DNA of 64,000 nt from an uncultured Enterobacteriaceae bacterium (GCA_964617355.1 CAZTXP010000146.1:6371-70370), one strand, 5' to 3'; shown: positions 24,995 through 42,679, counted from the stretch's first letter. Translations and numbers: made by a program. The notes: generated from the sequence alone by a model not told the origin.

Positions 24995-25735
24995 ATGTTC
25001 CTGCATCGCCTCGTGCGCTTGTGGATGATCGGCAGCCTCGGGCTGGCGATCGCGGGCTGGTGGATGAAGGACGTGCTGCCCGCACCCGAGCGCCTCGTGC
25101 CCGAGATCGCCAACGAGCCGGTGCAGAAGCGCACGCGCGAGAAGCCCTTCGACATCACGGTCGAGGGCGTGTCGTACCGCGTGCAGCCGCGCTACTCCTA
25201 CGACCTCAGCGCGCTGGTGGTGAGCCTGCACCACTCGGACTCGTGGTGGGACACCGCGCACAAGGAATGGGGCGACCACGTCAACGTGATGGACCTCTGC
25301 GTCGTCTGGGGCTCGAGCGCGACCAGCGGCGCGTATCGCTCGGTGAGCTTCAGCAACACGCAATGGGAGTGCCACTGGCAGTGGTTCGGCGAGGTGGCGT
25401 TCCGCAATGACGAGGCCTCGAACAACCACGTGGTGACCGAGAAGCCCGAGGTCGCGAAGGCGCTGAAGTCGATCCGCGTCGGCGACCAGGTGCGCATCCG
25501 CGGCTGGCTGGTCGACTACACGACCATGAAGGACGGCCGGCCGCAGGGCACGCGCGTCTCCAGCGACCGTCGTACCGACGACGGCCCCGGCGCCTGCGAG
25601 GTGATCTACGTCGACGAGGTCGAGGTGCTCGGCCGCGGCGGGCACCGCTGGCTGCTGGCGATGAAGATCGCGCTCGGCTCCCTGCTGGCGAGCCTGCTGG
25701 CGTGGCTGATGCTGCCGGCGCGCTTCGACGACTAG
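24995..25735 (+). CDS. Hypothetical protein (N-terminal TM, Trp/His-rich domain, C-terminal TM)
   Basis: ORF with hydrophobic ends. No recognised motif. Confidence 0.5.
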   Translation: MFLHRLVRLWMIGSLGLAIAGWWMKDVLPAPERLVPEIANEPVQKRTREKPFDITVEGVSYRVQPRYSYDLSALVVSLHHSDSWWDTAHKEWGDHVNVMDLCVVWGSSATSGAYRSVSFSNTQWECHWQWFGEVAFRNDEASNNHVVTEKPEVAKALKSIRVGDQVRIRGWLVDYTTMKDGRPQGTRVSSDRRTDDGPGACEVIYVDEVEVLGRGGHRWLLAMKIALGSLLASLLAWLMLPARFDD

Positions 25736-25743
25736 CCGCGCGC

Positions 25744-26739
25744 CTAGCAGATCCTCGGCAACTGCTCCCCCGCGAGCCAGTCGACGATGCGACGGCCGCC
25801 GAGCCGGGTCTCCATCTGCACGAAGCGGTGGTCGTCGGCGATCACCGTGCCGATGAGCGCGGCGTCCCGTCCCAGCGGGTGCGCGCGCATCGCGGCCAGC
25901 AGCCGTTCGGCGTCCGCCGGGTCGCAGATCGCCACCAGCTTGCCTTCGTTGGCCACGTTCAGCGGCTCGAGGCCGAGGAACTCGCAGGCGGCGTGCACCG
26001 CGGGGTGGACGGGGAGGTCGGCTTCGCGGATGTGGAAGCCGACGCCCGAGCTTTGCGCGAATTCGTTCAGCGTCGCCGCGAGGCCGCCGCGCGTCGGATC
26101 GCGCAGGCAGCGAATACCGGGAACGGATTCGACCATCGCCGCCACAAGCCCGTGCAATGCGGCAGAGTCGGAGCGCACCTCGGTCTCGAAGTCGAGCCCG
26201 GCGCGCGAGGACATCACCGCCACGCCGTGGTCGCCGAGCGTGCCCGAGACCAGCACCGCGTCGCCAGGCCGCGCGCGGTTCGCCGAGATCTCGATGCCTT
26301 CGGGCACCACGCCGATGCCGGTCGTGGTGATGAACACGCCGTCGGCATTGCCGCGCTCGACCACCTTGGTGTCGCCGGTGACCACCGGCACGCCGGCCGC
26401 ACGCGAGGCCGTGGCCATGGATTCGACGATGCGCTTGAGGTCCGCGAGCGGGAAGCCTTCCTCGAGGATGAAGCCCGCCGAGAGGTTGATCGGCCGCGCG
26501 CCGGCCATCGCCACGTCGTTGATCGTGCCGTGCACCGCGAGGCTGCCGATGTCGCCACCCGGGAAGAAGAGCGGCGTCACGACGTGGCAGTCCGTCGTGA
26601 CGACGAGGCGCCCGGGCGGCGCCGTGAACGTCGCCTGGTCGTTCTGCGCACGCAGCCAGTCGTTGTCGAACGCGGCGACGAAGAGCTCGTCGATCAGTTG
26701 CGCCATCGCGCGGCCGCCGGCGCCGTGGCCCATGTCCAC
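25744..26739 (-). CDS. hypE: Hydrogenase maturation factor HypE
   Basis: ..HGAGGRAMAQLIDELF.. and C-terminal ..PRIC typical of HypE. Start uncertain: GTG 26739, ATG 26733, or GTG 26778 (which overlaps the hypD stop). Confidence 0.85.
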   Translation of the reverse strand: MDMGHGAGGRAMAQLIDELFVAAFDNDWLRAQNDQATFTAPPGRLVVTTDCHVVTPLFFPGGDIGSLAVHGTINDVAMAGARPINLSAGFILEEGFPLADLKRIVESMATASRAAGVPVVTGDTKVVERGNADGVFITTTGIGVVPEGIEISANRARPGDAVLVSGTLGDHGVAVMSSRAGLDFETEVRSDSAALHGLVAAMVESVPGIRCLRDPTRGGLAATLNEFAQSSGVGFHIREADLPVHPAVHAACEFLGLEPLNVANEGKLVAICDPADAERLLAAMRAHPLGRDAALIGTVIADDHRFVQMETRLGGRRIVDWLAGEQLPRIC

Positions 26740-26774
26740 GCGCCCCTTCCAGTCGATCGGGCGGCCCCAGCGCG

Positions 26775-27899
26775 TCACGAGGCCACCGCCGCTTCCCGCC
26801 AGCGCCCGTAGGCGTGCCACGCCGCGCAGGCGCCTTCGCTCGACACCATGCACGATCCGACCGGATGGTCCGGCGTGCACGCGGTGCCGAAGAGGTGGCA
26901 GTCGCGCGGTTCCTTCGCGCCGCGCAGGATCGCCGCGCATTCGCAGGATTTCGGGTCCGGCACCGGGCGATAGACCAGCCCGTGGCGCGCCTCGGCATCG
27001 AAGCCGCGGAAGCGTTCGCGCAGCCGCAGGCCGCTCGACGGCAACTCGCCGAGGCCGCGCCACTCGAAGCTGTCGCGCGTCTCGAACACCTCGGCCATGG
27101 CCGCGATCGCGCGCGCGTTGCCGTCGCGATTCACCGCGCGCGTGTACTCGTTCTCGACCTCGTGGCGCCCCTCGTTCACCTGCCGCACCAGCATGCGCAC
27201 GGCCTGCATCACGTCCAGCGGCTCGAAGCCGGCGATCACGACGGGCTTGCCGTGCTCGCGCGCGAAGGGTTCGTAGGGCGCCGAGCCGATCACGCACGAC
27301 ACGTGCGCGGGGCCGACGAAGCCATCGATCGGCACGGGGTCGGCGCCGGGCGCGAGGATCGCCGCCATGGCCGCAGGCGTGAGCACGTGGTTGCAGAAGA
27401 CCGAGAAGTTCGCGATCCCGCTGCGTTCCGCTTCCAGCACCACTAGCGCGGTCGCCGGCGCAGTGGTCTCGAAGCCGATGGCCAGGAACACGACCTCCTT
27501 TGACGGATTCTCGCGCGCGATGCGCAGCGCGTCCGCCGCCGAGTAGACCATGCGCACGTCGGCGCCCTCGGCGCGCGCCTTCATCAGGCTCGACTGCCCC
27601 GAAGCCGGCACGCGCAGCGTGTCCGCGTACGTGCACAGCACGACGCGCTTCTTAAGCGCGAGCGCGATCGCGTTGTCGATGCGCCCCACCGGCAGCACGC
27701 AGACCGGGCAGCCCGGGCCATGGATCATCCTGACCGAGGGCGGCAGCAGGTCGGCGACGCCGTAGCGCGAGATGGCGTGCGTATGCCCGCCGCAGAACTC
27801 CATGAAGCGATAGCTTCGACCCGGCTGCACTTCGTGCGCGATTTGCGCAGCAATGCGCCGGGCGAGGTCGCCGTCGCGGAACTCGTCGACGTACTTCAC
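26775..27899 (-). CDS. hypD: Hydrogenase maturation factor HypD
   Basis: CGGHTH, GPGCPVC and FETTAP motifs. GTG start at 27897..27899 overlaps the hypC stop (GTGA). Confidence 0.85.
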   Translation of the reverse strand: MKYVDEFRDGDLARRIAAQIAHEVQPGRSYRFMEFCGGHTHAISRYGVADLLPPSVRMIHGPGCPVCVLPVGRIDNAIALALKKRVVLCTYADTLRVPASGQSSLMKARAEGADVRMVYSAADALRIARENPSKEVVFLAIGFETTAPATALVVLEAERSGIANFSVFCNHVLTPAAMAAILAPGADPVPIDGFVGPAHVSCVIGSAPYEPFAREHGKPVVIAGFEPLDVMQAVRMLVRQVNEGRHEVENEYTRAVNRDGNARAIAAMAEVFETRDSFEWRGLGELPSSGLRLRERFRGFDAEARHGLVYRPVPDPKSCECAAILRGAKEPRDCHLFGTACTPDHPVGSCMVSSEGACAAWHAYGRWREAAVAS

Positions 27900-28120
27900 G
27901 GCGCGGCGCCCTCCATGGCGTCGAACAGGGCCAGCGTCCTTGCGGCTTCGTCGGCATCCAGCACGCTGAGCGCGAAGCCGGCGTGCACGATCACGTAGTC
28001 GCCGACCCTGGCTTCGGGGACCAGCGCGAGCGAGATGCGCTTCCTCGCGCCGCCGAGGTCCACGGTGGCCTCGTCGCCGTCGTGGCGTTCGGAGACGAGC
28101 GCGGGAATCGCGAGGCACAT
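27896..28120 (-). CDS. hypC: Hydrogenase maturation factor HypC
   Basis: 74 aa starting MCLAIP (essential Cys2). Confidence 0.85.
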   Translation of the reverse strand: MCLAIPALVSERHDGDEATVDLGGARKRISLALVPEARVGDYVIVHAGFALSVLDADEAARTLALFDAMEGAAP

Positions 28121-28123
28121 GGC

Positions 28124-29230
28124 TCAGCCCTCCAGCCGCGCGATCGCGACCGCGGCCTGCCCGAGCGCGAGGCCCGCGTCGCCCGCGGAGACGAGGCGCG
28201 CCTCGAGCACCTGGAGGCCTTCGCGCGCCAGTTGCCGCCGGAGCTGCATGGACAGCACGCGATTGGCGAAGCAGCCGCCGCCGAGCGCGACGCAGGCGAG
28301 GTCGGTCTCGCTCGCTGCGCGCAGGGCCCATTCGGCGAGCGCGGCGGCGAGCGTGGCGTGGAACACCGCGGCACCCTTCGCGGGGTCGACGCAGTCCGCC
28401 AGCCAGTCGAGCAGCGGCAGGAGGTCCAGCGTGCCGCCGGCGTGCAGGGCCCAGCCGCCGTCGAGCGGGGCCGCAAGGCCGTGCTGGCTGGCGAGCGCCT
28501 CGAGGCGCATCGGCGCCTCGCCTTCGCGTTCGTTGGTCTCGCAGGCGCCGAGCAGCGCCGCCGCGGCATCGAACCAGCGGCCGGCGCTCGAGGTGGGCGG
28601 GCAGCGCAGGCGGCTCGCGAGCATTTGCACCACCGGCTTCGCGGCGCGGCGCGGGAAGCGGCGCCGTACTTCGTCGGCACGGCCGAGTTCGTGCAGCGCC
28701 GCCGCAGCCATGCGCCAGGGCTCGCGCGCGGCGCGGTCGCCGCCGGGCATCGGCAGCGTTCGAATGTGACCGAGGCGAACGAAGTCGCCCCGCTCGACGC
28801 GCAGCAGTTCGCCACCCCAGGCGCCGCCATCGGTGCCGAGGCCGACGCCGTCCAGCGCGAGGCCGAGCACGGGTTCGTCGAGGCCGTGTTCCGCGACTAC
28901 CGAGGCGATGTGCGCGTGATGGTGTTGCACGCCGATCGCCGGCACGCCGAATTCCGCGGCGAGCTGCTGCGCGAAGCGAGTGCTCTGGAAATCCGGATGC
29001 AGGTCGTGGGCCACCACCGCCGGCTCGATGCCGAGCGTGCCGAGCAGTTGCCGCGCGGTTTCCTCCAGCGCCAGCACGGCGGAGGGCTCGCCGAGGTCGC
29101 CGACCGAAGCCGAGAGATAGGCTTCGTCGCTGCGCGTCGCGCAGACGGCGGCCTTCAGCCACGCGCCCAGCGCGAGCACGGGCGGGCCGGGCTTCGCGAG
29201 CTGGATCGACGCGGGCGAGCGTGCGTTCAT
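28124..29230 (-). CDS. hypF: Short-form carbamoyltransferase HypF (HypF1-like: Kae1/YgjD-like C-terminal domain only)
   Basis: 368 aa. Matches only the C-terminal carbamoyltransferase domain of HypF. No acylphosphatase, Zn-finger or YrdC domains. ATG overlaps the hypB stop (ATGA). Confidence 0.75.
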
Positions 29231-30048
29231 GTGGCACTCGCAAGCGAGTGCGCAGCGCTCGCGAGGGAGCGGGCGGGCAGGCGCTCGGCGATCCAGCCGA
29301 GCCACGCGTCCATGCCTTGCCCGGTCTTCGCGGAGACCTCGAGCGCGCGGATCGCCGGGTTCGCGAGCCGGGCATGGCCCAGCGCGCGCGCGACGTCGAA
29401 GTCCACGTAGGGCAGCAGGTCGCATTTGTTGAAGAGGACCAGCGACGAGCCGCGGAAGATGTCCGGGTACTTGAGCGGCTTGTCGTCGCCCTCGGTGACC
29501 GACAGCACCACCACGCGCTCCGCTTCGCCGAGGTCGAAGGCCGCGGGGCAGACGAGGTTGCCGACGTTCTCGATCATCAGCACGCCGCCTTCGGGGGCCG
29601 GCACTTGATGGAATGCGCGGTCGATCATCGAGGCGTCGAGGTGGCAACCCTTGCCGGTGTTCACCTGCACCGCGGGTGCGCCGGTGGCACGGATGCGATC
29701 GGCGTCCAGGCTCGTCTGCTGGTCGCCCTCGATCACCGCCACCGGGCAGCGGCCGCGCAGCGCCTCGATGGTCTTGACGAGCAGGGTGGTCTTGCCGGAG
29801 CCGGGGCTGGAGACCAGGTTCACCGCAAGTACGCGATGCGCGGCGAAGTGGCGGCGGTTGGCGATGGCGATCGCGTCGTTCTTCGCCAGCAGGTCTTCCT
29901 CGACGGCGACGCGGCGCAGGTCGGCCGCAGCGTGCCCATGATCGTGCGAGTGTTCGTGCGAATGTTCGTGAGAGTGTCCGTGCGCATGCTCGTGGGGATG
30001 CCCGTAGACATGCGCTTCTTCGTGTCCGCAGCCGCAAGTGGTGCACAT
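29227..30048 (-). CDS. hypB: Hydrogenase nickel incorporation GTPase HypB with His-rich N-terminus
   Basis: MCTTCGCG, a His-rich stretch ([21 protein letters not shown]), and a G-domain with GSGKTT. RBS GGAG. Confidence 0.85.
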
Positions 30049-30059
30049 GGCGGGTCTCC

Positions 30060-30302
30060 TCAGGCGATCTCGATGTCGCGCACGCGCATGGCGTGGCCGG
30101 GGATGCGTTCGATGTCGAGCCGCGCGCCGCTCGCGCAGCCCTCGCGCGCGACGACCTCGAAGGCGAAGGCGAGCGCCTCGGGTTCGACGCAGGCCGCGTC
30201 GCCCAGGTCGAGGCGCACCGAGGCGACGCGCGTCGCGCCGTGCTTGCGGGCCGCGGCCTCCACGATCGCGAGCATGTCCTGCGCGAGGCTCAGTTCGTGC
30301 AT
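30060..30302 (-). CDS. hypA: HypA-like hydrogenase nickel-insertion protein, truncated (80 aa, no CxxC zinc-finger)
   Basis: [26 protein letters not shown].. aligns with the HypA N-terminus. The C-terminus ..RVRDIEIA aligns with the HypA end. The two CxxC motifs are absent. Confidence 0.7.
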
Positions 30303-30793
30303 GGCGGGGCCTCCGCGACGCGGTCCCAGTACGCAGGATCGGGGTGCGAAAGCAGGTCGCGGGCGAGTCGCGTCGCGGCGGCGAGCCGCGCTTCGGCTTG
30401 CGCGTCCATCGCCGCGCCGAGTTCGAAGCGCTCGCCGCGGATCGCCAGCAGCCACGCCTCCGGCGCCGTGGCGCCGGCGATGTCCTCGCGCACCGACAGC
30501 AGGGCTTGCGGGCTGAGCGCGTGCGTGGTGAAGCTGCGGTCGCGGGCGGGCGCGACGCGCGTGAGGGCGTAGGGCGCAGGTGCGCGCGTGCTCGCGTCCA
30601 CGAACAGCACTTGCGCCGCGCCATCGAGGTCGAGCGCGTGCTCCGGTTGCAGCTGGAAATCCCAAAGGAACCCATGCTCGCGCCAGTCCGGGTGGCTCGC
30701 CGCCTCGGCCTCTAGCGATGCGAGCAGCATCGGCCCGAGCGCGTCGTCGCCGCGGCCGGGATTGCCCCATCCGAGGACCAGGACGCGACTCAT
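30290..30793 (-). CDS. hoxW: Hydrogenase maturation endopeptidase (HoxW/HyaD family)
   Basis: [20 protein letters not shown] and ..HALS.. metal-binding residues. Lies directly downstream of the large subunit. Confidence 0.75.
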
Positions 30794-32289
30794 GCGGGGC
30801 GCACCGTGCCGTCGGCGTCGCGCGCCAGGGCCGACACGCGTTCACCTGACGCGTCGATCAGCTCGATCTCGAGCGGCATGCGTCCGAGCGCGTGCGTGGC
30901 GCAGGAGAGGCAGGGGTCGTAGGCGCGGATCGCGACCTCGACGTGGTTCAGCAGCGGCTCGGTGACCTCGTGGCCGTCGAGGTGCTGCAGGGCGACCACG
31001 CGCACCGCCTCGTTCATCGCCTGGTTGTTGTGCGTGGTCGAGACGATGAGATTGCAGCGCACGACCTGGTCGTTCTCGTCGATGCGGTAGTGGTGGATCA
31101 GCGTGCCGCGCGGCGCCTCGATCACGCCGACGCCGCGGAACTGGCGTTCACCCGGCACCACGAGTTCGCCCGAGAGGAGATCCGGGTCCGCAAGCAGCGC
31201 CTCGATGCCCTCGGCCGCGTGCAGCATCTCGATCATGCGCGCCCAGTGGTAGGCCAGCGAGGCGTGGCGTGCCGAGCCGCCGTCGTGGGTGACGAGTTCC
31301 TGGCGCGCGGCTTCGGCCAGTGGCGTCGGGATGAAGTCGCAATTGAACACCCGCGCCAGCGGGCCGACGCGATACCAGCCGTCCTCGGCGCCGAGCGCGC
31401 GGATGAACGGGAACTTCATGTAGGACCACGGTTTCACCACCTCGTGCAGCACCTCGCCGTAGGCGGCGGGGTCGTGCTGGTCGAAAAGGATCGCGCCCGA
31501 GGCGTCGCGCGCCCGGAGCTTGCCGTCGTAGAGTTCCATGCCGCCATCGGCGCGCACCAGGGACAGCACCGGCGAGCGCAGTGCGGCGAAGTCGCGTGCG
31601 GATTCCTTGCCGTCGACGTAGAGGCGCTTCGCGATCTCGACGGCTTCGCGGCTCCATGCGAGGGTCTGCGCGAGGTCCTTGAGCAACTCGTCGCGCTCGG
31701 CGGCCGAGAGGCGCTTGTTCACGCCGCCCGGCACCGCCAGGGACCCGTGCACGCGCTTGCCGGCGGTGATGCGGATCACCTCCTGCCCGTACTTCCGGAG
31801 CAGCACGCCCTTCTTCGCGACTTCGGGGAAGGCCGCGGCCACCGCGAGCACGTGGCGCTTCTCCACCGGCGCATCGAAGCCGAAGAGCAGGTCCGGCGAC
31901 GACAGGTGGAAGAAATGCAGCGCGTGCGACTGCAGCACCTGCCCGAAATGCAAGAGGCGCCGCATCTTGTCGGCGGTGGGCGTGAGCTTCGTTGCGCCGG
32001 CGAGCATGTCCACGGCCTTCGCGCCGGCGAGGTGGTGGCTCACCGGGCAGATGCCGCAGAGGCGCTGCACCATCACCGGCACCTCCCAGTAGGGCCGGCC
32101 CTGCACGAACTTCTCGAAGCCGCGGAACTCGACGATGTGGAAGCGCGCCTGCTGTACGCGGTTGGATTCGTCGAGCAGCAGCGTCACCTTGCCGTGGCCT
32201 TCGACGCGCGTGACCGGCTCGATCACCACGCGGCGCAGGTTTTCCGGATTCGGTGTCGATTCGAGGCGGGAGGCGGGAGTGGGGCTCAT
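30790..32289 (-). CDS. hoxH: [NiFe] hydrogenase large subunit, NAD-reducing (group 3d) HoxH-like
   Basis: N-terminal RVEGHG and RLCGICPVSH. C-terminal DPCLSCATH followed by a cleavable extension. Confidence 0.9.
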   Translation of the reverse strand: MSPTPASRLESTPNPENLRRVVIEPVTRVEGHGKVTLLLDESNRVQQARFHIVEFRGFEKFVQGRPYWEVPVMVQRLCGICPVSHHLAGAKAVDMLAGATKLTPTADKMRRLLHFGQVLQSHALHFFHLSSPDLLFGFDAPVEKRHVLAVAAAFPEVAKKGVLLRKYGQEVIRITAGKRVHGSLAVPGGVNKRLSAAERDELLKDLAQTLAWSREAVEIAKRLYVDGKESARDFAALRSPVLSLVRADGGMELYDGKLRARDASGAILFDQHDPAAYGEVLHEVVKPWSYMKFPFIRALGAEDGWYRVGPLARVFNCDFIPTPLAEAARQELVTHDGGSARHASLAYHWARMIEMLHAAEGIEALLADPDLLSGELVVPGERQFRGVGVIEAPRGTLIHHYRIDENDQVVRCNLIVSTTHNNQAMNEAVRVVALQHLDGHEVTEPLLNHVEVAIRAYDPCLSCATHALGRMPLEIELIDASGERVSALARDADGTVRPA

Positions 32290-32296
32290 GGGTGGC

Positions 32297-32836
32297 TCAG
32301 TCGTAGCGCACGGCCGCGGGATCGAGCGTCGGGGTGCGGCCGGCGATCAGGTCGGTGAAGAACTTCGAGAAGGTGTCGGCCGACGGCGGGCAGCCGGGCA
32401 GGAAGTAGTCGACGCGCACCACCTCCTGGATCGGGTGCACTTTGTCGAAGGGTAGCGGCAGTTCGCGGTCGTTCGGGATCACGTGGCCCTCGGTGCCGGG
32501 CTCGTACTGGTAGACCTCGCGGAAGCATTCCCAGAGGCTGACGTTGTTCCGCATCGCGGGCACGCCGCCGGTGATCGCGCAGGCGCCGACCGCGACCAGG
32601 ATGCGGCAGTTCTGGCGGAAGGCCTTCAGCACGTGAACGTTTTCGGCATTGCACAGGCCGCCTTCCACCAGCCCGACGTCGCAGGGCCCGACCTTCTTGA
32701 TGTCGTTGATCGGCGAGCGGTCGAACTCCACGTGCTGCGCGAGTTCGAGGATGCGCTCGTCGATGTCGAGCAGCGACATGTGGCAGCCGAAGCAGCCGGC
32801 CAGCGAACAGGTGGCGACGCGCAGTTTCTCAGCCAC
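32297..32836 (-). CDS. hoxY: [NiFe] hydrogenase small subunit HoxY-like
   Basis: GTG start after AAGGAG (MAEKLRVATCSLAGCFGCHMS). Group-3 small-subunit Cys pattern. Confidence 0.8.
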   Translation of the reverse strand: MAEKLRVATCSLAGCFGCHMSLLDIDERILELAQHVEFDRSPINDIKKVGPCDVGLVEGGLCNAENVHVLKAFRQNCRILVAVGACAITGGVPAMRNNVSLWECFREVYQYEPGTEGHVIPNDRELPLPFDKVHPIQEVVRVDYFLPGCPPSADTFSKFFTDLIAGRTPTLDPAAVRYD

Positions 32837-33572
32837 GGCGCGGCTCCTTGTCGAGTGAATAGTCCTTCGCCTGTCGCGCCTCGGTGATCGCGACTTCGCG
32901 GATCGGATGCTTGTCGAAGGTGCGCTCGCCGATCGGCACCTGGTAGGCGCGGCGCTTGGGCAGCAGCGCGCCGACGGGGCACACGCGCACCGCGGCATCG
33001 GTCACCTCGACCTTCGAGTCGCGCAACAGGCCCGTGGGGGAATCCACCACCAGTCGCGAGCGGATGCCGCGCCCGGCGATGGCGAAGGCGCGCTTGCCGT
33101 CGACGTCGCGGCTGGCGCGCACGCAGAGGTCGCAGAGGATGCAGCGGTTGCGGTCGAGCAGCACGTCCGGATGCGAGGCGTCGAGGTCGCGCGCCGGGAA
33201 GAAGTGCTCGAACCGCGAGTGGTCCATGCCGACGTGATAGCCCACCGCCTGCAGCTCGCAGTCGCCGCTCTTCTCGCAGGCGGGGCAGGCGTGGTTGCCC
33301 TCCGCGAACAGCATTTCGACCAGCGCGCGGCGCATGTCGATGAGTTCCGGCGTCGCGCTCTCGACCTTCATGCCGGTGCGCGCGCGCGTGGTGCACGAGG
33401 CCGCGTTGCGGCCGTCGATCGCTACCGTGCAGACCTTGCAGCTGCCGTGCGGCTCGTACCCGGGCCGATGGCACAGGTGCGGGATGTACGCGCCGGCGTC
33501 GAGCGCCGCCTGCATCACCGTCTCGCCCTCGCGGAAGGGGATCTCGCGGCCGTCGAGCGTGAAGGTGCTCAT
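32829..33572 (-). CDS. hoxU: NAD-reducing hydrogenase diaphorase subunit HoxU (2Fe-2S + 4Fe-4S, NuoG-like)
   Basis: MSTFTLDGREI.., the CHRPGYEPHGSCKVC 2Fe-2S cluster, and a CILCDLCVRAS 4Fe-4S motif. Confidence 0.85.
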   Translation of the reverse strand: MSTFTLDGREIPFREGETVMQAALDAGAYIPHLCHRPGYEPHGSCKVCTVAIDGRNAASCTTRARTGMKVESATPELIDMRRALVEMLFAEGNHACPACEKSGDCELQAVGYHVGMDHSRFEHFFPARDLDASHPDVLLDRNRCILCDLCVRASRDVDGKRAFAIAGRGIRSRLVVDSPTGLLRDSKVEVTDAAVRVCPVGALLPKRRAYQVPIGERTFDKHPIREVAITEARQAKDYSLDKEPRRG

Positions 33573-35356
33573 GGGGTTTCGCTTTCGATGTGCGCCCACT
33601 CGTCGTCGCGGCCGGTGATCAGGCGCGCGGTGCCGAGCGCGGCGTCGAGGTCGAAGGAGGGCTCGTAGTCGAGGTTCACCAGCCGCCGCTCGAAGGACTC
33701 GGGGAAGGCCTGCATCGCCTGCACCACCGGCCGCGCGGCGGTGTGGCCGAGGCCGCAGTGGCTCATCGCCTGCAGCACGCGCATCAGCATCTTCATGCGG
33801 TCCATGTCCCAGGCGCTGCCCTTGCCCTCGGCGAGCTTGTCCATGGTGTTGCGCAGGAGCGAGGTGCCGACGCGGCACGGCGTGCAGAAGCCGCAACTCT
33901 CGTGCGCGAAGAAGTGCGTGAAGTTGCGCGCCACGTCGAACATGTCGCGGTTGCGCGAGAACACCATCAGCGCGCCTGCCGTGGGCACGTCCTCGAACGA
34001 CAGCTTCCGGTCGAAGTCGCGCCAGGGAAGGCACGTGCCCGAGGGGCCGCCGACCTGCACCGCCTGCGGCTGCTGCGCGCCTGCGTCCGCGAGTACCTGC
34101 TTGAGGCTCGCGCCGAAGGGCACCTCGTAGATGCCGGGGCGCTTCACGTCACCCGAGAGGCTGAGAAGCTTCGTTCCGGTGGAACCCGGCGTGCCGAGCG
34201 TGGCGAACCACGCGCCGCCGCGCTCGAGGATCTTCGCCGCGCAGGCGTAGGTCTCGACGTTGTTCACCACCGAGGGCTGGCCCTGGAAGCCGAAGGTGTC
34301 GGGGTAGGGCGGCCGATTGCGCGGACGACCGGGCTTGCCTTCGAGCGACTCGATCAGCGCCGACTCCTCGCCGCAGATGTACGCGCCCGCGCCGAGCACG
34401 ATCTCGATGTCGAACGCGTAGCCGGGAGAACCGAGGATGTGCTCGCCCAGCAGGCCGGCCTTGCGGCGCCGCTCCAGCACTGCGTTCAGTCCCTCGTGCA
34501 GCGACAGGTACTCGCCGCGCAGGTACAGGAAGCCCTTCGTGGCGCCGAGCACGCGCGCGGCGATCGTCATGCCCTCGAAGACGAGGTCGGCGTGGCTTTT
34601 CAGCAGCACGCGATCCTTGAAGGTGCCGGGCTCGCCTTCGTCGGCGTTGCAGATGACGTAGTGCGCCTTGCCATTCGCCTTGCGGGCCGATCCCCACTTG
34701 GCTGCGGTCTTGAAGCCGGCGCCGCCGCGGCCGCGCAGGTTGGCCGCATCCAGTTCGGCGAGGATGCCGTCCGCCCCGACGGCGAGCGCGCGGCGCAGGG
34801 CCGCGCCCGGCTCGAAGGGCTCGCCGATCAGCGGCCCGGCCTTGCGGACGTTGTCGGGCACGTCGAACAGCGTGGCGGGCCAATGCTCGAGCGCGCGCTG
34901 CTCGCGGATCAGGTTGGCGATCAGGTCGAGCTTGTTGCGATCCAGCGCTGGCACGAGGCGCCCGTTGACCAGCGCACCGGGGGGCTGGTCGGCGAGTCCG
35001 ATGTCCGAGGTGCTGTCGACGAACACCAGGCCGTCCTCGCTCAGCTTGCCGGGTTCGACGAGCAGGCCGTCGCAGAAGCCGCGCATCAACTCGGCCTTGC
35101 CGGCCATGTGGTCGATGACGTTATCCGAGAACAGGATCTCGTAGCACCCGTGCGGCTTGTCGTGCAGCAGGTGGTAGAAGCTCGACGTGGCCTCGACCTC
35201 GGCGCGGGTGAGGCCCACAGCCGCGGCGATGCGCTCGAGCGACTCGGGCGGCACGCAGCCCAGTTCGGACTGCACGCTCCGAAGGATGGCCAGCAGGCGC
35301 CACGGCTCGTTCCCGTGGCGCGCGATGGCACGATCGACGGCGGGGTTCGGGTCCAT
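33569..35356 (-). CDS. hoxF: NAD-reducing hydrogenase diaphorase subunit HoxF (NuoE-NuoF fusion; NAD/FMN binding)
   Basis: 595 aa. Thioredoxin-like 2Fe-2S N-terminus, GxGxxG FMN/NADH sites, and an ESCGFCTPCR 4Fe-4S motif. Confidence 0.9.
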   Translation of the reverse strand: MDPNPAVDRAIARHGNEPWRLLAILRSVQSELGCVPPESLERIAAAVGLTRAEVEATSSFYHLLHDKPHGCYEILFSDNVIDHMAGKAELMRGFCDGLLVEPGKLSEDGLVFVDSTSDIGLADQPPGALVNGRLVPALDRNKLDLIANLIREQRALEHWPATLFDVPDNVRKAGPLIGEPFEPGAALRRALAVGADGILAELDAANLRGRGGAGFKTAAKWGSARKANGKAHYVICNADEGEPGTFKDRVLLKSHADLVFEGMTIAARVLGATKGFLYLRGEYLSLHEGLNAVLERRRKAGLLGEHILGSPGYAFDIEIVLGAGAYICGEESALIESLEGKPGRPRNRPPYPDTFGFQGQPSVVNNVETYACAAKILERGGAWFATLGTPGSTGTKLLSLSGDVKRPGIYEVPFGASLKQVLADAGAQQPQAVQVGGPSGTCLPWRDFDRKLSFEDVPTAGALMVFSRNRDMFDVARNFTHFFAHESCGFCTPCRVGTSLLRNTMDKLAEGKGSAWDMDRMKMLMRVLQAMSHCGLGHTAARPVVQAMQAFPESFERRLVNLDYEPSFDLDAALGTARLITGRDDEWAHIESETP

Positions 35357-35491
35357 GGCTTTTCGCCTTGCGTTGTGGCAAACCCAGTATGGAAGGGCGG
35401 GGTGGTTCGCACTTGAGGCAGGTCAAGCCTGCGGCGGCGTCCGGGCTTGGCTTATCCTCGCGTCTTTCGTTTTCGACCCTTGGAGCGACGA

Positions 35492-40935: not shown

Positions 40936-41982
40936 TCAGAGCAAGGCGATGTGGTGTTCCCGGCCGGGCCGCACCCGACCGACCTCGACCGCCGGCACGC
41001 CCCGGGCTCGCAGCGTGGCGAGCGCCGCGTCGAAGGCGGCGTCGGCGATGAAGCACAGCAGCCCGCCCGAGGTCTGCGGGTCGTAGAACAGGTCCACGAG
41101 GTCTTCCGGAACGCCGGGCCCGACGTTCACGCCCGGCGAGAAATGCGCGCGGTTCGACTTCATGCCGCCGCTGCGGTTCCTCGAGACGAGGTCGCGCACG
41201 CCGTCGAAGAGCGGCACGCGCGCGGCGTCGAATTCGATCGTCACGCCGCTCGCCTGCGCGACCTCGCTGCCGTGGCCGACGAGGCCGAAGCCGGTGACGT
41301 CGGTGCACGAATGCACCGCATCGTTCCCGATGAGCGCTTCCGCGGCCACCTTGTTCAGGGCGCGCATCGCCTCCACCGCCTGCGCCGCGAGCGCCTCGGG
41401 CGCGCGCCGGCCCTTGATCGCGGTGCCGATCACGCCGGTGCCGATGGGCTTGGTGAGCAGCAGGCGGTCGCCGGGCTTCGCGCCTGCGTTGCGCCAGATG
41501 CGCGCCGGGTCCACGGAGCCCGTGACCGAGTAGCCGAACTTCAGCTCGGGGTCCTGCACCGTGTGCCCGCCGAGCAGCGCGACGCCGGCCTCGCGCAGCT
41601 TGGAATGCCCGCCGCGGAAGATCGCGGCAATGGCGTCGACGCCGAGCACGCCCTTGGGGAATCCGGCGATCGCCAGCGCGGTGAGCGGCCGCCCGCCCAT
41701 CGCATAGACGTCGGACAGCGAATTCGCCGCCGCGATCTGCCCGTAGGTGAACGGGTCGTCGACGATCGGCGTGAAGAAGTCCACCGTCTGCACGAGCGCC
41801 GGCCCGCCCTCCCAGGCGTAGACGCCCGCGTCGTCCGCATCGCGGAAGTCGACGAGGACGCGCGGGTCGCTGTCGAGCGGGATGTCTCCCAGCACGTGGG
41901 AGAGCTCGCCTGCGGCGAGCTTGCTCGCTCAACCCGCGCAGGTGACGAGGTCGGTGAGGCGGGGGGTGTCGGGTGCGGTCAT
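40936..41982 (-). CDS. selD: Selenophosphate synthetase SelD, selenocysteine-containing (in-frame UGA at 41929..41931)
   Basis: ATG at 41980..41982. Reads MTAPDTPRLTDLVTCAG-U-ASKLAAGELSHVLGDIPL.., collinear with SelD GxG(C/U)GxK. Rest of the protein is as ORF 40936..41895. Confidence 0.8.
41896..41928 (-). promoter_or_regulatory. SECIS-like stem-loop immediately 3' of the selD UGA codon
   Basis: mRNA GCGAGCAAGCUCGCCGCAGGCGAGCUC forms GCGAGC/GCUCGC and GGCGAGCUC palindromic stems, starting 1 nt after the UGA. Confidence 0.5.
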
Positions 41983-42188
41983 GGCGTTTGGGCCGAACGG
42001 CCTGAAGGCGAGCGAGGCGGGGCAAGTACGGGTGCGCCCGAGCCCTGGTAGGTCGCGGGGGCTTCACGAACCATGCGCGTGAACGCGCAAAGGTCCTCGA
42101 GCCATTGCAGTTTGGCGAGATCCGGCACCGCGAGGTACGCGCGAATCTGCTCGTCGGTGACTTCGTACCGGTAGTCTTGCGCGTTCAT
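41979..42188 (-). CDS. Small ORF (69 aa) translationally coupled (ATGA) to upstream nucleotidyltransferase gene
   Basis: MNAQDYRYEVTDEQIRAYLAVPDLAKLQW.. The C-terminal half is low complexity; it may partly be the selD leader. Confidence 0.3.
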   Translation of the reverse strand: MNAQDYRYEVTDEQIRAYLAVPDLAKLQWLEDLCAFTRMVREAPATYQGSGAPVLAPPRSPSGRSAQTP

Positions 42189-42679
42189 CGCTTGCCCAGA
42201 TCCTGCACCCGGCGCAAGGCCTCGATGTCGGATGCATCCTTCTGCCGACCGGTGCCGGTCTTCAGCGCCACCAGGTCGTCGATGGCGGCGATGTTCAGCA
42301 TCACGCCGCCGACGTCCTTGGATATGCGGTTCCGGTGCATTTGCTCGAAGGATACGACAGGCCGGACGATCACGTCGACCGTCGGGGACGTCGGCGACGG
42401 CGCGCGCAGGGCGAACGCAATCATGTGCTTCTCGCGTGCCCACTGGTCGAGTTGCGAGGCGTCGCACAGCGACTCGATCGACACCGGCAGAGAAGGGCGT
42501 AGCTCCATGCGCCTCGCGGCGCCGAGGAAGCGCTTCAGGTTCGCGTCATCCATCGCGAGGACGAGATCCACGTCCATCGTCGCGCGCTCGACGCCGTGCA
42601 GGTTGACCGCAAGGCCGCCGACGAGGACATAGTCGACCCCTTCTTCATGGAGTGCGCGGAAAAGGTCGAGGTAGAACAT
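42185..42679 (-). CDS. Nucleotidyltransferase-fold protein (paralog of 55863..56390)
   Basis: MFYLDLFRALHEEGVDYVLVGGLAVNLHGVERATMDVDLVL matches the minimal NTase GG..(x)n..DxD pattern. Confidence 0.6.
   Translation of the reverse strand: MFYLDLFRALHEEGVDYVLVGGLAVNLHGVERATMDVDLVLAMDDANLKRFLGAARRMELRPSLPVSIESLCDASQLDQWAREKHMIAFALRAPSPTSPTVDVIVRPVVSFEQMHRNRISKDVGGVMLNIAAIDDLVALKTGTGRQKDASDIEALRRVQDLGKR

Follow-up and report, generated by a model that had tools for sequence, protein, structure and literature searches.

A selD gene with an in-frame UGA at its catalytic codon, probably encoding a selenoprotein, and two tandem hairpins downstream of the UGA

The selD gene in the 64 kb stretch of DNA analysed here (the window) was called in the ORF track (40936-41895) from a GTG codon, and the question raised by this locus is whether the call represents the complete gene or the larger part of a longer one whose in-frame UGA is read as selenocysteine (Sec). 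Translation of the minus strand across 40936-41982 gives MTAPDTPRLTDLVTCAG, a TGA at codon 18 and then ASKLAAGELSHVLGDIPL and onwards, the frame running for 330 further codons past TGA 41931-41929 and closing with TGA 40938-40936. The sole ATG, GTG or TTG codon after the last in-frame stop and ahead of the internal TGA is the ATG at 41982, which lies 29 codons 5' of the ORF-track GTG, and a start 7-9 codons ahead of the RLT motif is also found in relatives. This translation matches the one in a preliminary description of the locus, which had proposed that selD is a selenoprotein gene with an in-frame UGA missed by the ORF track. The features discussed below are collected in Table 1.

With C put in place of the in-frame stop, the 348-aa protein scored 353.2 bits against TIGR00476, the NCBIfam selD equivalog (cut-off 125), and 305.3 bits against NF002098 (cut-off 299), and it aligned over residues 6-341 with Escherichia coli SelD (PDB 3u0o; E = 4e-65). 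The UGA column coincides with Cys17 of 3u0o and the Lys three codons on with Lys20 ('hgagCgcK' in 3u0o, 'tcagCasK' in the window), in agreement with the earlier placing of the UGA at the catalytic Cys/Sec position. To contain the loop with the catalytic Cys/Sec and Lys, the protein has to be initiated at ATG 41982 with read-through of the UGA, the product from GTG 41895 having neither the Sec/Cys17 nor the Lys20 equivalent. UGA is an ordinary stop elsewhere in this genome, as at the ends of selD itself (TGA 40938-40936) and of hypF (TGA 28126-28124), and it is not reassigned. We conclude that selD very probably encodes a full-length selenophosphate synthetase (selenide,water dikinase) in which residue 18 is Sec. 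The true N-terminus is almost certainly 29 codons longer than in the ORF-track model, at ATG 41982 and not GTG 41895, as had also been proposed, and the additional peptide is conserved.

Table 1. Positions of selD, its post-UGA hairpins and the other features of the window discussed in the text.
Feature	Position	Strand	Description	Basis
selD, full CDS	40936..41982	minus	348 codons including predicted Sec18, plus TGA stop 40938-40936	translation, TIGR00476, 3u0o alignment
Predicted true start codon, ATG	41980..41982	minus	shares ATGA with the end of the 69-aa ORF 5' of it, whose stop is TGA	
In-frame UGA, predicted to be read as Sec18	41929..41931	minus	equivalent of E. coli SelD Cys17	
GTG, start in the ORF track	41893..41895	minus	predicted Val30, inside the H2 loop	
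Hairpin H1	41903..41921	minus	AGCUCGCC-GCA-GGCGAGCU, 8 bp, 3-nt loop, encoded by K-L-A-A-G-E-L	
Hairpin H2	41886..41902	minus	CUCCCA-CGUGC-UGGGAG, 6 bp, 5-nt loop, invariant GU	
69-aa ORF directly upstream of selD	41979..42188	minus	stop overlaps selD ATG; no Pfam match	
DUF6036/AbiEii-like nucleotidyltransferase gene	42185-42679	minus	upstream of the 69-aa ORF, 4-nt overlap	
TPR-CHAT protein gene	~36.9-39.4 kb	plus	between the hydrogenase cluster and selD	
NAD-linked NiFe hydrogenase cluster	25000-35400	minus	HoxF-like Nuo51 and 2Fe-2S subunit, small and large subunits	
Hydrogenase large subunit	30790-32346	minus	RLCGICPVSH near the N-terminus, DPCLSCATH at the C-terminus	

Of the thousands of SelD homologues retrieved by a protein search, 120 were listed, and the figures given here rest on those. 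Their lengths are bimodal: 31 are of 342-353 aa, every one of them with Cys at the catalytic column, and 89 are of 285-324 aa, lengths that fit calls cut at the TGA. The shorter set includes the 319-aa database protein P0001, which is the truncated version of the window selD as called from GTG 41895. At the DNA level, 80 related loci were sampled from species-representative genomes and 80 from metagenomes, with the site readable in 150; the catalytic codon is TGA in 122 of these and TGC or TGT in the remaining 28. To judge from this sample, the occurrence of UGA at the catalytic codon is far beyond chance. The window selD belongs to a clade of Vicinamibacteria/Acidobacteriota MAGs together with a few Betaproteobacteria/Burkholderiaceae MAGs, its nearest relatives in genomes being Betaproteobacteria/Burkholderiales-like MAGs at 72-75% identity. 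On a neighbour-joining tree of SelD proteins the Sec/Cys status switches at least four times, in line with published Sec-to-Cys conversions in SelD (PMC1794560).

The peptide 5' of the TGA is conserved in relatives as RLT[ED][ML]V.CAG, and the conserved context around the Sec codon in the TGA loci is RLTEMVSCAG-U-ASKLAAGEL. Within this peptide the Ala codon at alignment columns 7-9 is free at its third position (GCC 39, GCG 23, GCT 20, GCA 5), so the upstream segment is translated in frame with the enzyme. For analysis of the nucleotide sequence around the UGA we used 90 distinct Sec-form sequences, with 16 Cys-form relatives of the same clade as a comparison. The Gly codon directly 5' of the UGA (columns 10-12, window 41932-41934 on the minus strand) is GGU in 88 of the 90 Sec forms, and the codon preceding the catalytic Cys in the 16 Cys forms is GGC in ten and GGA, GGG or GGU in two each. 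The retention of GGU before the UGA despite high-GC codon usage suggests selection on the base that precedes it.

Two hairpins lie downstream of the UGA within the coding sequence. The stem of H1 (AGCUCGCC with GGCGAGCU) begins 7 nt after the UGA and its loop lies 15 nt after it, while H2 directly abuts H1 and presents its loop 32 nt after the UGA. Folded alone, H1 has an energy of -13.2 kcal/mol (z = -3.7) and H2 of -7.7 kcal/mol (z = -2.8); for the 46-48 nt post-UGA segment the values are -21.7 to -23.1 kcal/mol. The minimum-free-energy fold in the window is H1 plus H2, and the same two helices were recovered by RNAalifold from 70 relatives. The hairpin of the preliminary description is real, corresponding to the stable and conserved H1, and its start is to be corrected from 1 nt to 7 nt after the UGA; H2 was absent from that description though it directly follows H1. 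A small competing stem right after the UGA (columns 16-20 with 25-29), the closest counterpart to the 1-nt placing of the preliminary description, was also considered and was rejected in favour of H1 because it shows no covariation and the changes at its variable positions are uncompensated. A search of 41840-41990 with Rfam at E up to 10 found no SECIS family and gave two noise matches (CRISPR-DR28 and mir-3389).

Across the 90 Sec forms, pairing amounts to 97.8% over the six core pairs of H1 and to 99.4% in H2. None of 500 column shuffles matched the observed values, and slid registers were about 30% paired. In H1, pair 29:35 changes in a compensatory manner (CG in 86 sequences, GC in four), the change being tied to a peptide change from LAAGEL to LGPAEL. 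Covarying pairs in H2 are 45:55, 43:57 and 42:58. At 45:55 the combinations are UA in 71 sequences, CG in 17 and UG in two, and this switch has occurred in at least eight independent changes on the neighbour-joining tree; with it, a silent GCU-to-GCC change in an Ala codon goes together with replacement of Ser by Gly, a combination for which there is no protein-level rationale. A further compensatory change has occurred in the lineage of the window itself, where pair 43:57 is UA in the window sequence and in L162 (90% identical to it) but GC in L163 (78% identical).

In the Sec forms, and only there, synonymous positions hardly vary in the stems while those in the loops are free to change, as predicted if selection acts at the level of structure. 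The Leu codon in the H1 stem (columns 25-27) is CTC in all 90 Sec forms and varies among the 16 Cys forms (CTT 7, CTC 5, CTG 4), while the Glu codon of the same stem (columns 37-39) is GAG in 89 Sec forms and GAA in one, with eight of each among the Cys forms. In the H1 loop, the Ala codon (columns 31-33) is GCC in 26, GCT in 23, GCA in 22 and GCG in 12 of the 90 Sec forms and mostly GCC (10 of 16) in the Cys forms; the Val codon in the H2 loop (columns 49-51) is GTC in 43, GTG in 42 and GTT in five Sec forms and mostly GTG (nine) in the Cys forms. The two hairpins fare differently in the Cys forms. H1 is still 86.5% paired in these 16 sequences; part of the pairing in this GC-rich coding region, above all that of H1, is due to the conserved peptide LAAGEL and to codon bias. 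Pairing of H2 is 59.4% in the same sequences, and all six H2 pairs are kept in 87 of 90 Sec forms versus none of the 16 Cys forms, with a mean folding energy for the H2 segment of -9.9 kcal/mol in the Sec forms versus -3.2 kcal/mol in the Cys forms of LAAGEL type. The earlier claim of a SECIS-like hairpin holds in that a structure does follow the UGA, but the element separating Sec from Cys forms is H2 and not the H1 hairpin that had been noted.

The bacterial SECIS (bSECIS) model used by bSECISearch is a single stem-loop (PMC13188914, Figure 2 legend). It allows 3-9 nt in the apical loop, 4-16 bp in the upper stem and 16-37 nt between UGA and loop, requires a G at loop position 1 or 2, usually within G[G/U], and sets the upper limit for the minimum free energy at -7.5 kcal/mol (PMC13188914). 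Loop and stem sizes are within range for both H2 (5 nt, 6 bp) and H1 (3 nt, 8 bp), and both pass the energy threshold, H2 at -7.7 kcal/mol just inside it and H1 at -13.2 kcal/mol. The spacing of 32 nt places H2 within the permitted range, and that of H1, at 15 nt, is one nucleotide short. The H2 loop, C-G-U-G-C, has G49 and U50 invariant in 90 sequences and so contains G[G/U]; in the H1 loop, G-C-A, the G is not part of a G[G/U], and this loop is CCC in the LGPAEL subgroup. As modelled here, H2 fits all the published bSECIS constraints. Because of this fit and of its loss in the Cys forms, and with H1 fitting less well, H2 is favoured as the loop bound by SelB, and on balance it probably has this role; we consider it doubtful that H1 does, and rather unlikely that the binding element is a composite of H1 and H2. 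The window would then depart from the bSECIS consensus in carrying a stronger second hairpin, H1, in the spacer between UGA and H2, where it would be an accessory or spacer helix, itself selected at the RNA level in the Sec forms.

A different fold of the same segment would make the SECIS a single long hairpin that starts from the UGA, with UGAGCGAGC paired to GCUCGCUCA, an AAAC bulge, and the H1 apical stem with its GCN loop on top, leaving no place for H2. This is the minimum-free-energy fold in most of the Acidobacteriota relatives, its lower stem is 96.8% paired across the 90 sequences, and its geometry, with an apical stem-loop about 10 nt after the UGA, resembles that of the E. coli fdhF SECIS. 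However, the fold favoured in the window is H1 plus H2 instead, and the lower stem shows a compensatory change in one sequence only. Moreover, A15:C45, in which A15 is the A of the UGA, is mismatched in the window and in 16 other Sec forms, because column 45 covaries with column 55 of H2, and the loop at the top of the long hairpin would be the CCC without G in the LGPAEL subgroup. The long hairpin is compatible with most relatives but lacks the support of covariation and is weak in the window; we consider it doubtful, and H1 plus H2 is the architecture that we prefer. The fdhF element itself is an experimentally defined SelB-binding hairpin located in the coding sequence directly 3' of the UGA, with a GU apical loop; the window hairpins have no detectable sequence similarity to it and lack its bulged U, and if H2 is the ligand its loop would lie further from the UGA.

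More distant, Terriglobia-like Sec-SelD genes with the peptide ASKLSPAAL (L135-L159 and L077) have neither H1 nor H2. Their post-UGA RNA folds as one long hairpin, whose apical loop is GGU or GGC and lies about 20 nt from the UGA. This group uses a different hairpin, so the SECIS architecture appears to be clade-specific. A joint reading of these observations is that the SECIS of the window clade is bipartite, made of two abutting hairpins with the GU loop recognised by SelB on H2, 32 nt from the UGA, that H1 and the GGU codon are separately selected accessories, and that the arrangement is shared by two phyla via horizontal transfer. We put this forward tentatively, as plausible but short of probable. 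If it is true, the accessories might, for example, serve for spacing or coaxial stacking, or influence ribosome pausing or the anti-termination context.

The same comparisons bear on accounts in which the UGA does not encode Sec at all. Were it a nonsense mutation from TGC or TGT, for which a single-base change suffices, selD would be an inactivated gene whose upstream 17 codons are not productively translated, and the failure to find Sec machinery within the 64 kb window would be in keeping with this. Yet 122 related loci, drawn from collections of genomes and of metagenomes, have the same TGA, purifying selection acts on the flanking peptide as on the remainder of SelD, and compensatory changes in the downstream hairpins occur only in the TGA forms, so that a pseudogene is extremely improbable and, in the light of the comparative data, would seem effectively refuted. 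We give just as little credence to the 319-aa ORF as the real product, that is, an N-terminally shorter SelD-like protein initiated at GTG 41895, even though this model is common to the NCBI, ENA, JGI and Logan gene calls. Such a protein would be without the glycine-rich N-terminal loop that includes the Sec/Cys17 and Lys20 equivalents, the 17 codons 5' of the TGA are conserved as protein, and GTG 41895 encodes a conserved Val within the protein and falls in the H2 loop.

The UGA might also be read through without Sec, either by a near-cognate tRNA (Trp or Cys) or by a Cys-charged tRNA-Sec, with the hairpins only stimulating read-through. There is a precedent in insects, which have SPS genes that contain UGA and lack a SECIS (PMC4561486), and the Sec machinery of the present genome is a predicted one. 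Against this, Cys is the only substitution at the UGA codon among the bacterial relatives, as expected for a Sec/Cys site, the H2 loop matches the SelB-type bSECIS consensus, and Sec-SelD is a common and experimentally established bacterial selenoprotein family (PMC13188914); we regard read-through of this kind as very unlikely, and Sec insertion as the preferred account.

Under Sec insertion, translation would initiate at ATG 41982 and proceed until UGA 41931-41929 enters the A site, where a SelB-GTP-Sec-tRNA(Sec) complex tethered to the mRNA by the H1 plus H2 segment would insert Sec in place of RF2 termination, and translation would run on to the normal TGA stop at 40938-40936. Since the UGA, the peptide 5' of it and the hairpins are all under strong purifying selection, we infer that SelA, SelB and tRNA-Sec are present in the genome. 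Within the 64 kb window no tRNA-Sec was found by ARAGORN or Rfam, Pfam scans of about 40 of its ORFs found no selA, selB or selU, and Rfam at gathering thresholds returned tRNAs only. The selD neighbours in 80 related genomes likewise do not include selA or selB, and none of selA, selB and selU is near selD in the Acidobacteriota/Vicinamibacterales loci. The sole tRNA-Sec detected by ARAGORN in the fetched loci (L073, 5813-5907, minus strand, anticodon tca) is in a Terracidiphilus MAG, immediately 5' of a selD of the Cys type. When the window was scanned for further in-frame TGAs with coding-like sequence on either side, the one site to emerge was the junction between the hypF stop and the hypC start. 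This TGA (28124-28126, minus strand) was rejected as a Sec codon, since it is the hypF stop with the HypC start (MCLAIPALV) one codon on in the same frame, an ordinary gene junction.

Sec-containing SelD has been known for decades, bacterial examples being the Haemophilus influenzae and Aquifex aeolicus enzymes. Structures of the latter include PDB 2yye, 2zod and 2zau, and the window SelD matches 2yye_A with E = 8.5e-57. The window protein shares with bacterial Sec-SelD the TIGR00476 family, an N-terminal loop with UGA as its catalytic codon and an invariant Lys after it, a structured RNA just downstream inside the coding sequence, and Cys-form homologues in sister lineages; nothing differs in kind, the window clade having two tandem post-UGA hairpins and not one. 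E. coli SelD (3u0o) has the motifs around DDAGVY, TVDFFTPIVDDP, NSLSDVYAMGG and TDVTGFGL in common with the window, but has Cys (TGC) in place of the UGA and does not need a SECIS. Sec is encoded at the catalytic position by 19% of prokaryotic SelD genes, SelD being 'often a selenoprotein itself', and selenoprotein genes are routinely mis-annotated owing to their UGA (PMC4561486). The window selD is a mis-annotated Sec-SelD of a well-known type, and presents no new mechanism, because SelD is already the second most widespread prokaryotic selenoprotein family (PMC13188914). Mildly new are the tandem hairpins, the tracking of Sec usage by H2 and not H1, the GGU before the UGA, and a clade that spans Acidobacteriota and a few Betaproteobacteria-like MAGs. 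For annotation, the true product would be 348 aa with Sec18 and the public calls would represent a catalytically dead 319-aa fragment; truncated calls probably also affect most of the closest homologues. The gene marks the organism as a probable Sec user, and the availability of 90 Sec versus 16 Cys forms from a single clade could inform SECIS modelling and the detection of selenoprotein genes.

On the minus strand at 41979-42679, the nucleotidyltransferase gene, the 69-aa ORF and selD each overlap the next by 4 nt, and the overlap of the 69-aa ORF with selD possibly reflects translational coupling. A second DUF2204/AbiEii-like gene lies at 55863-56414. Two close relatives (L162 and L163) are without the nucleotidyltransferase/69-aa pair and have GGAACCCCC before the selD ATG instead. 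Downstream of the window selD is a GGDEF-hemerythrin gene, and L162 has the order selD, hemerythrin, 2-hydroxyacid dehydrogenase in common with the window. The Pfam neighbours in the window comprise GGDEF-hemerythrin, DUF6036, GntR, TctC, sulfatase and Hox/Hyp hydrogenase genes and the TPR-CHAT protein; the G+C content of the window is about 70%. Together with the Betaproteobacteria/Burkholderiales-like MAGs as nearest selD relatives, the TctC-family gene and this G+C content suggest that the source is itself probably a MAG of that kind. No synteny of these selD neighbours with the 80 genome loci was detected by tblastn. Among 137 genes that flank selD in relatives, classified with NCBIfam, parA/parB and atpF predominate and Sec genes are absent, and in the Acidobacteriota/Vicinamibacterales loci (L004-L072) the Sec-type selD has a conserved housekeeping setting, between parA/parB upstream and atpF (ATP synthase subunit b) downstream.

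The hydrogenase encoded nearby had been described as a NiFe and not a NiFeSe enzyme, and the C-terminal DPCLSCATH of the large subunit confirms that it is of the Cys type. The cluster includes hyp maturation genes, HypB-like and HypD, with HypF/HypC assigned by inference. On the other side of selD, five tRNA-like genes lie 1-8 nt apart at 51873-52396 on the minus strand, all with an encoded CCA, and adjoin SPFH/Band7 and AAA-ATPase genes. They include tRNA-Arg(acg), tRNA-Lys(ctt), a tRNA-Phe(gaa) with mismatched stems and no Rfam score, one tRNA with a 6-nt anticodon loop and an anticodon of 'at' only, and a fifth gene (51873-51938) found by Rfam only. The array could be of mobile-element or phage type, or could consist of degenerate copies.
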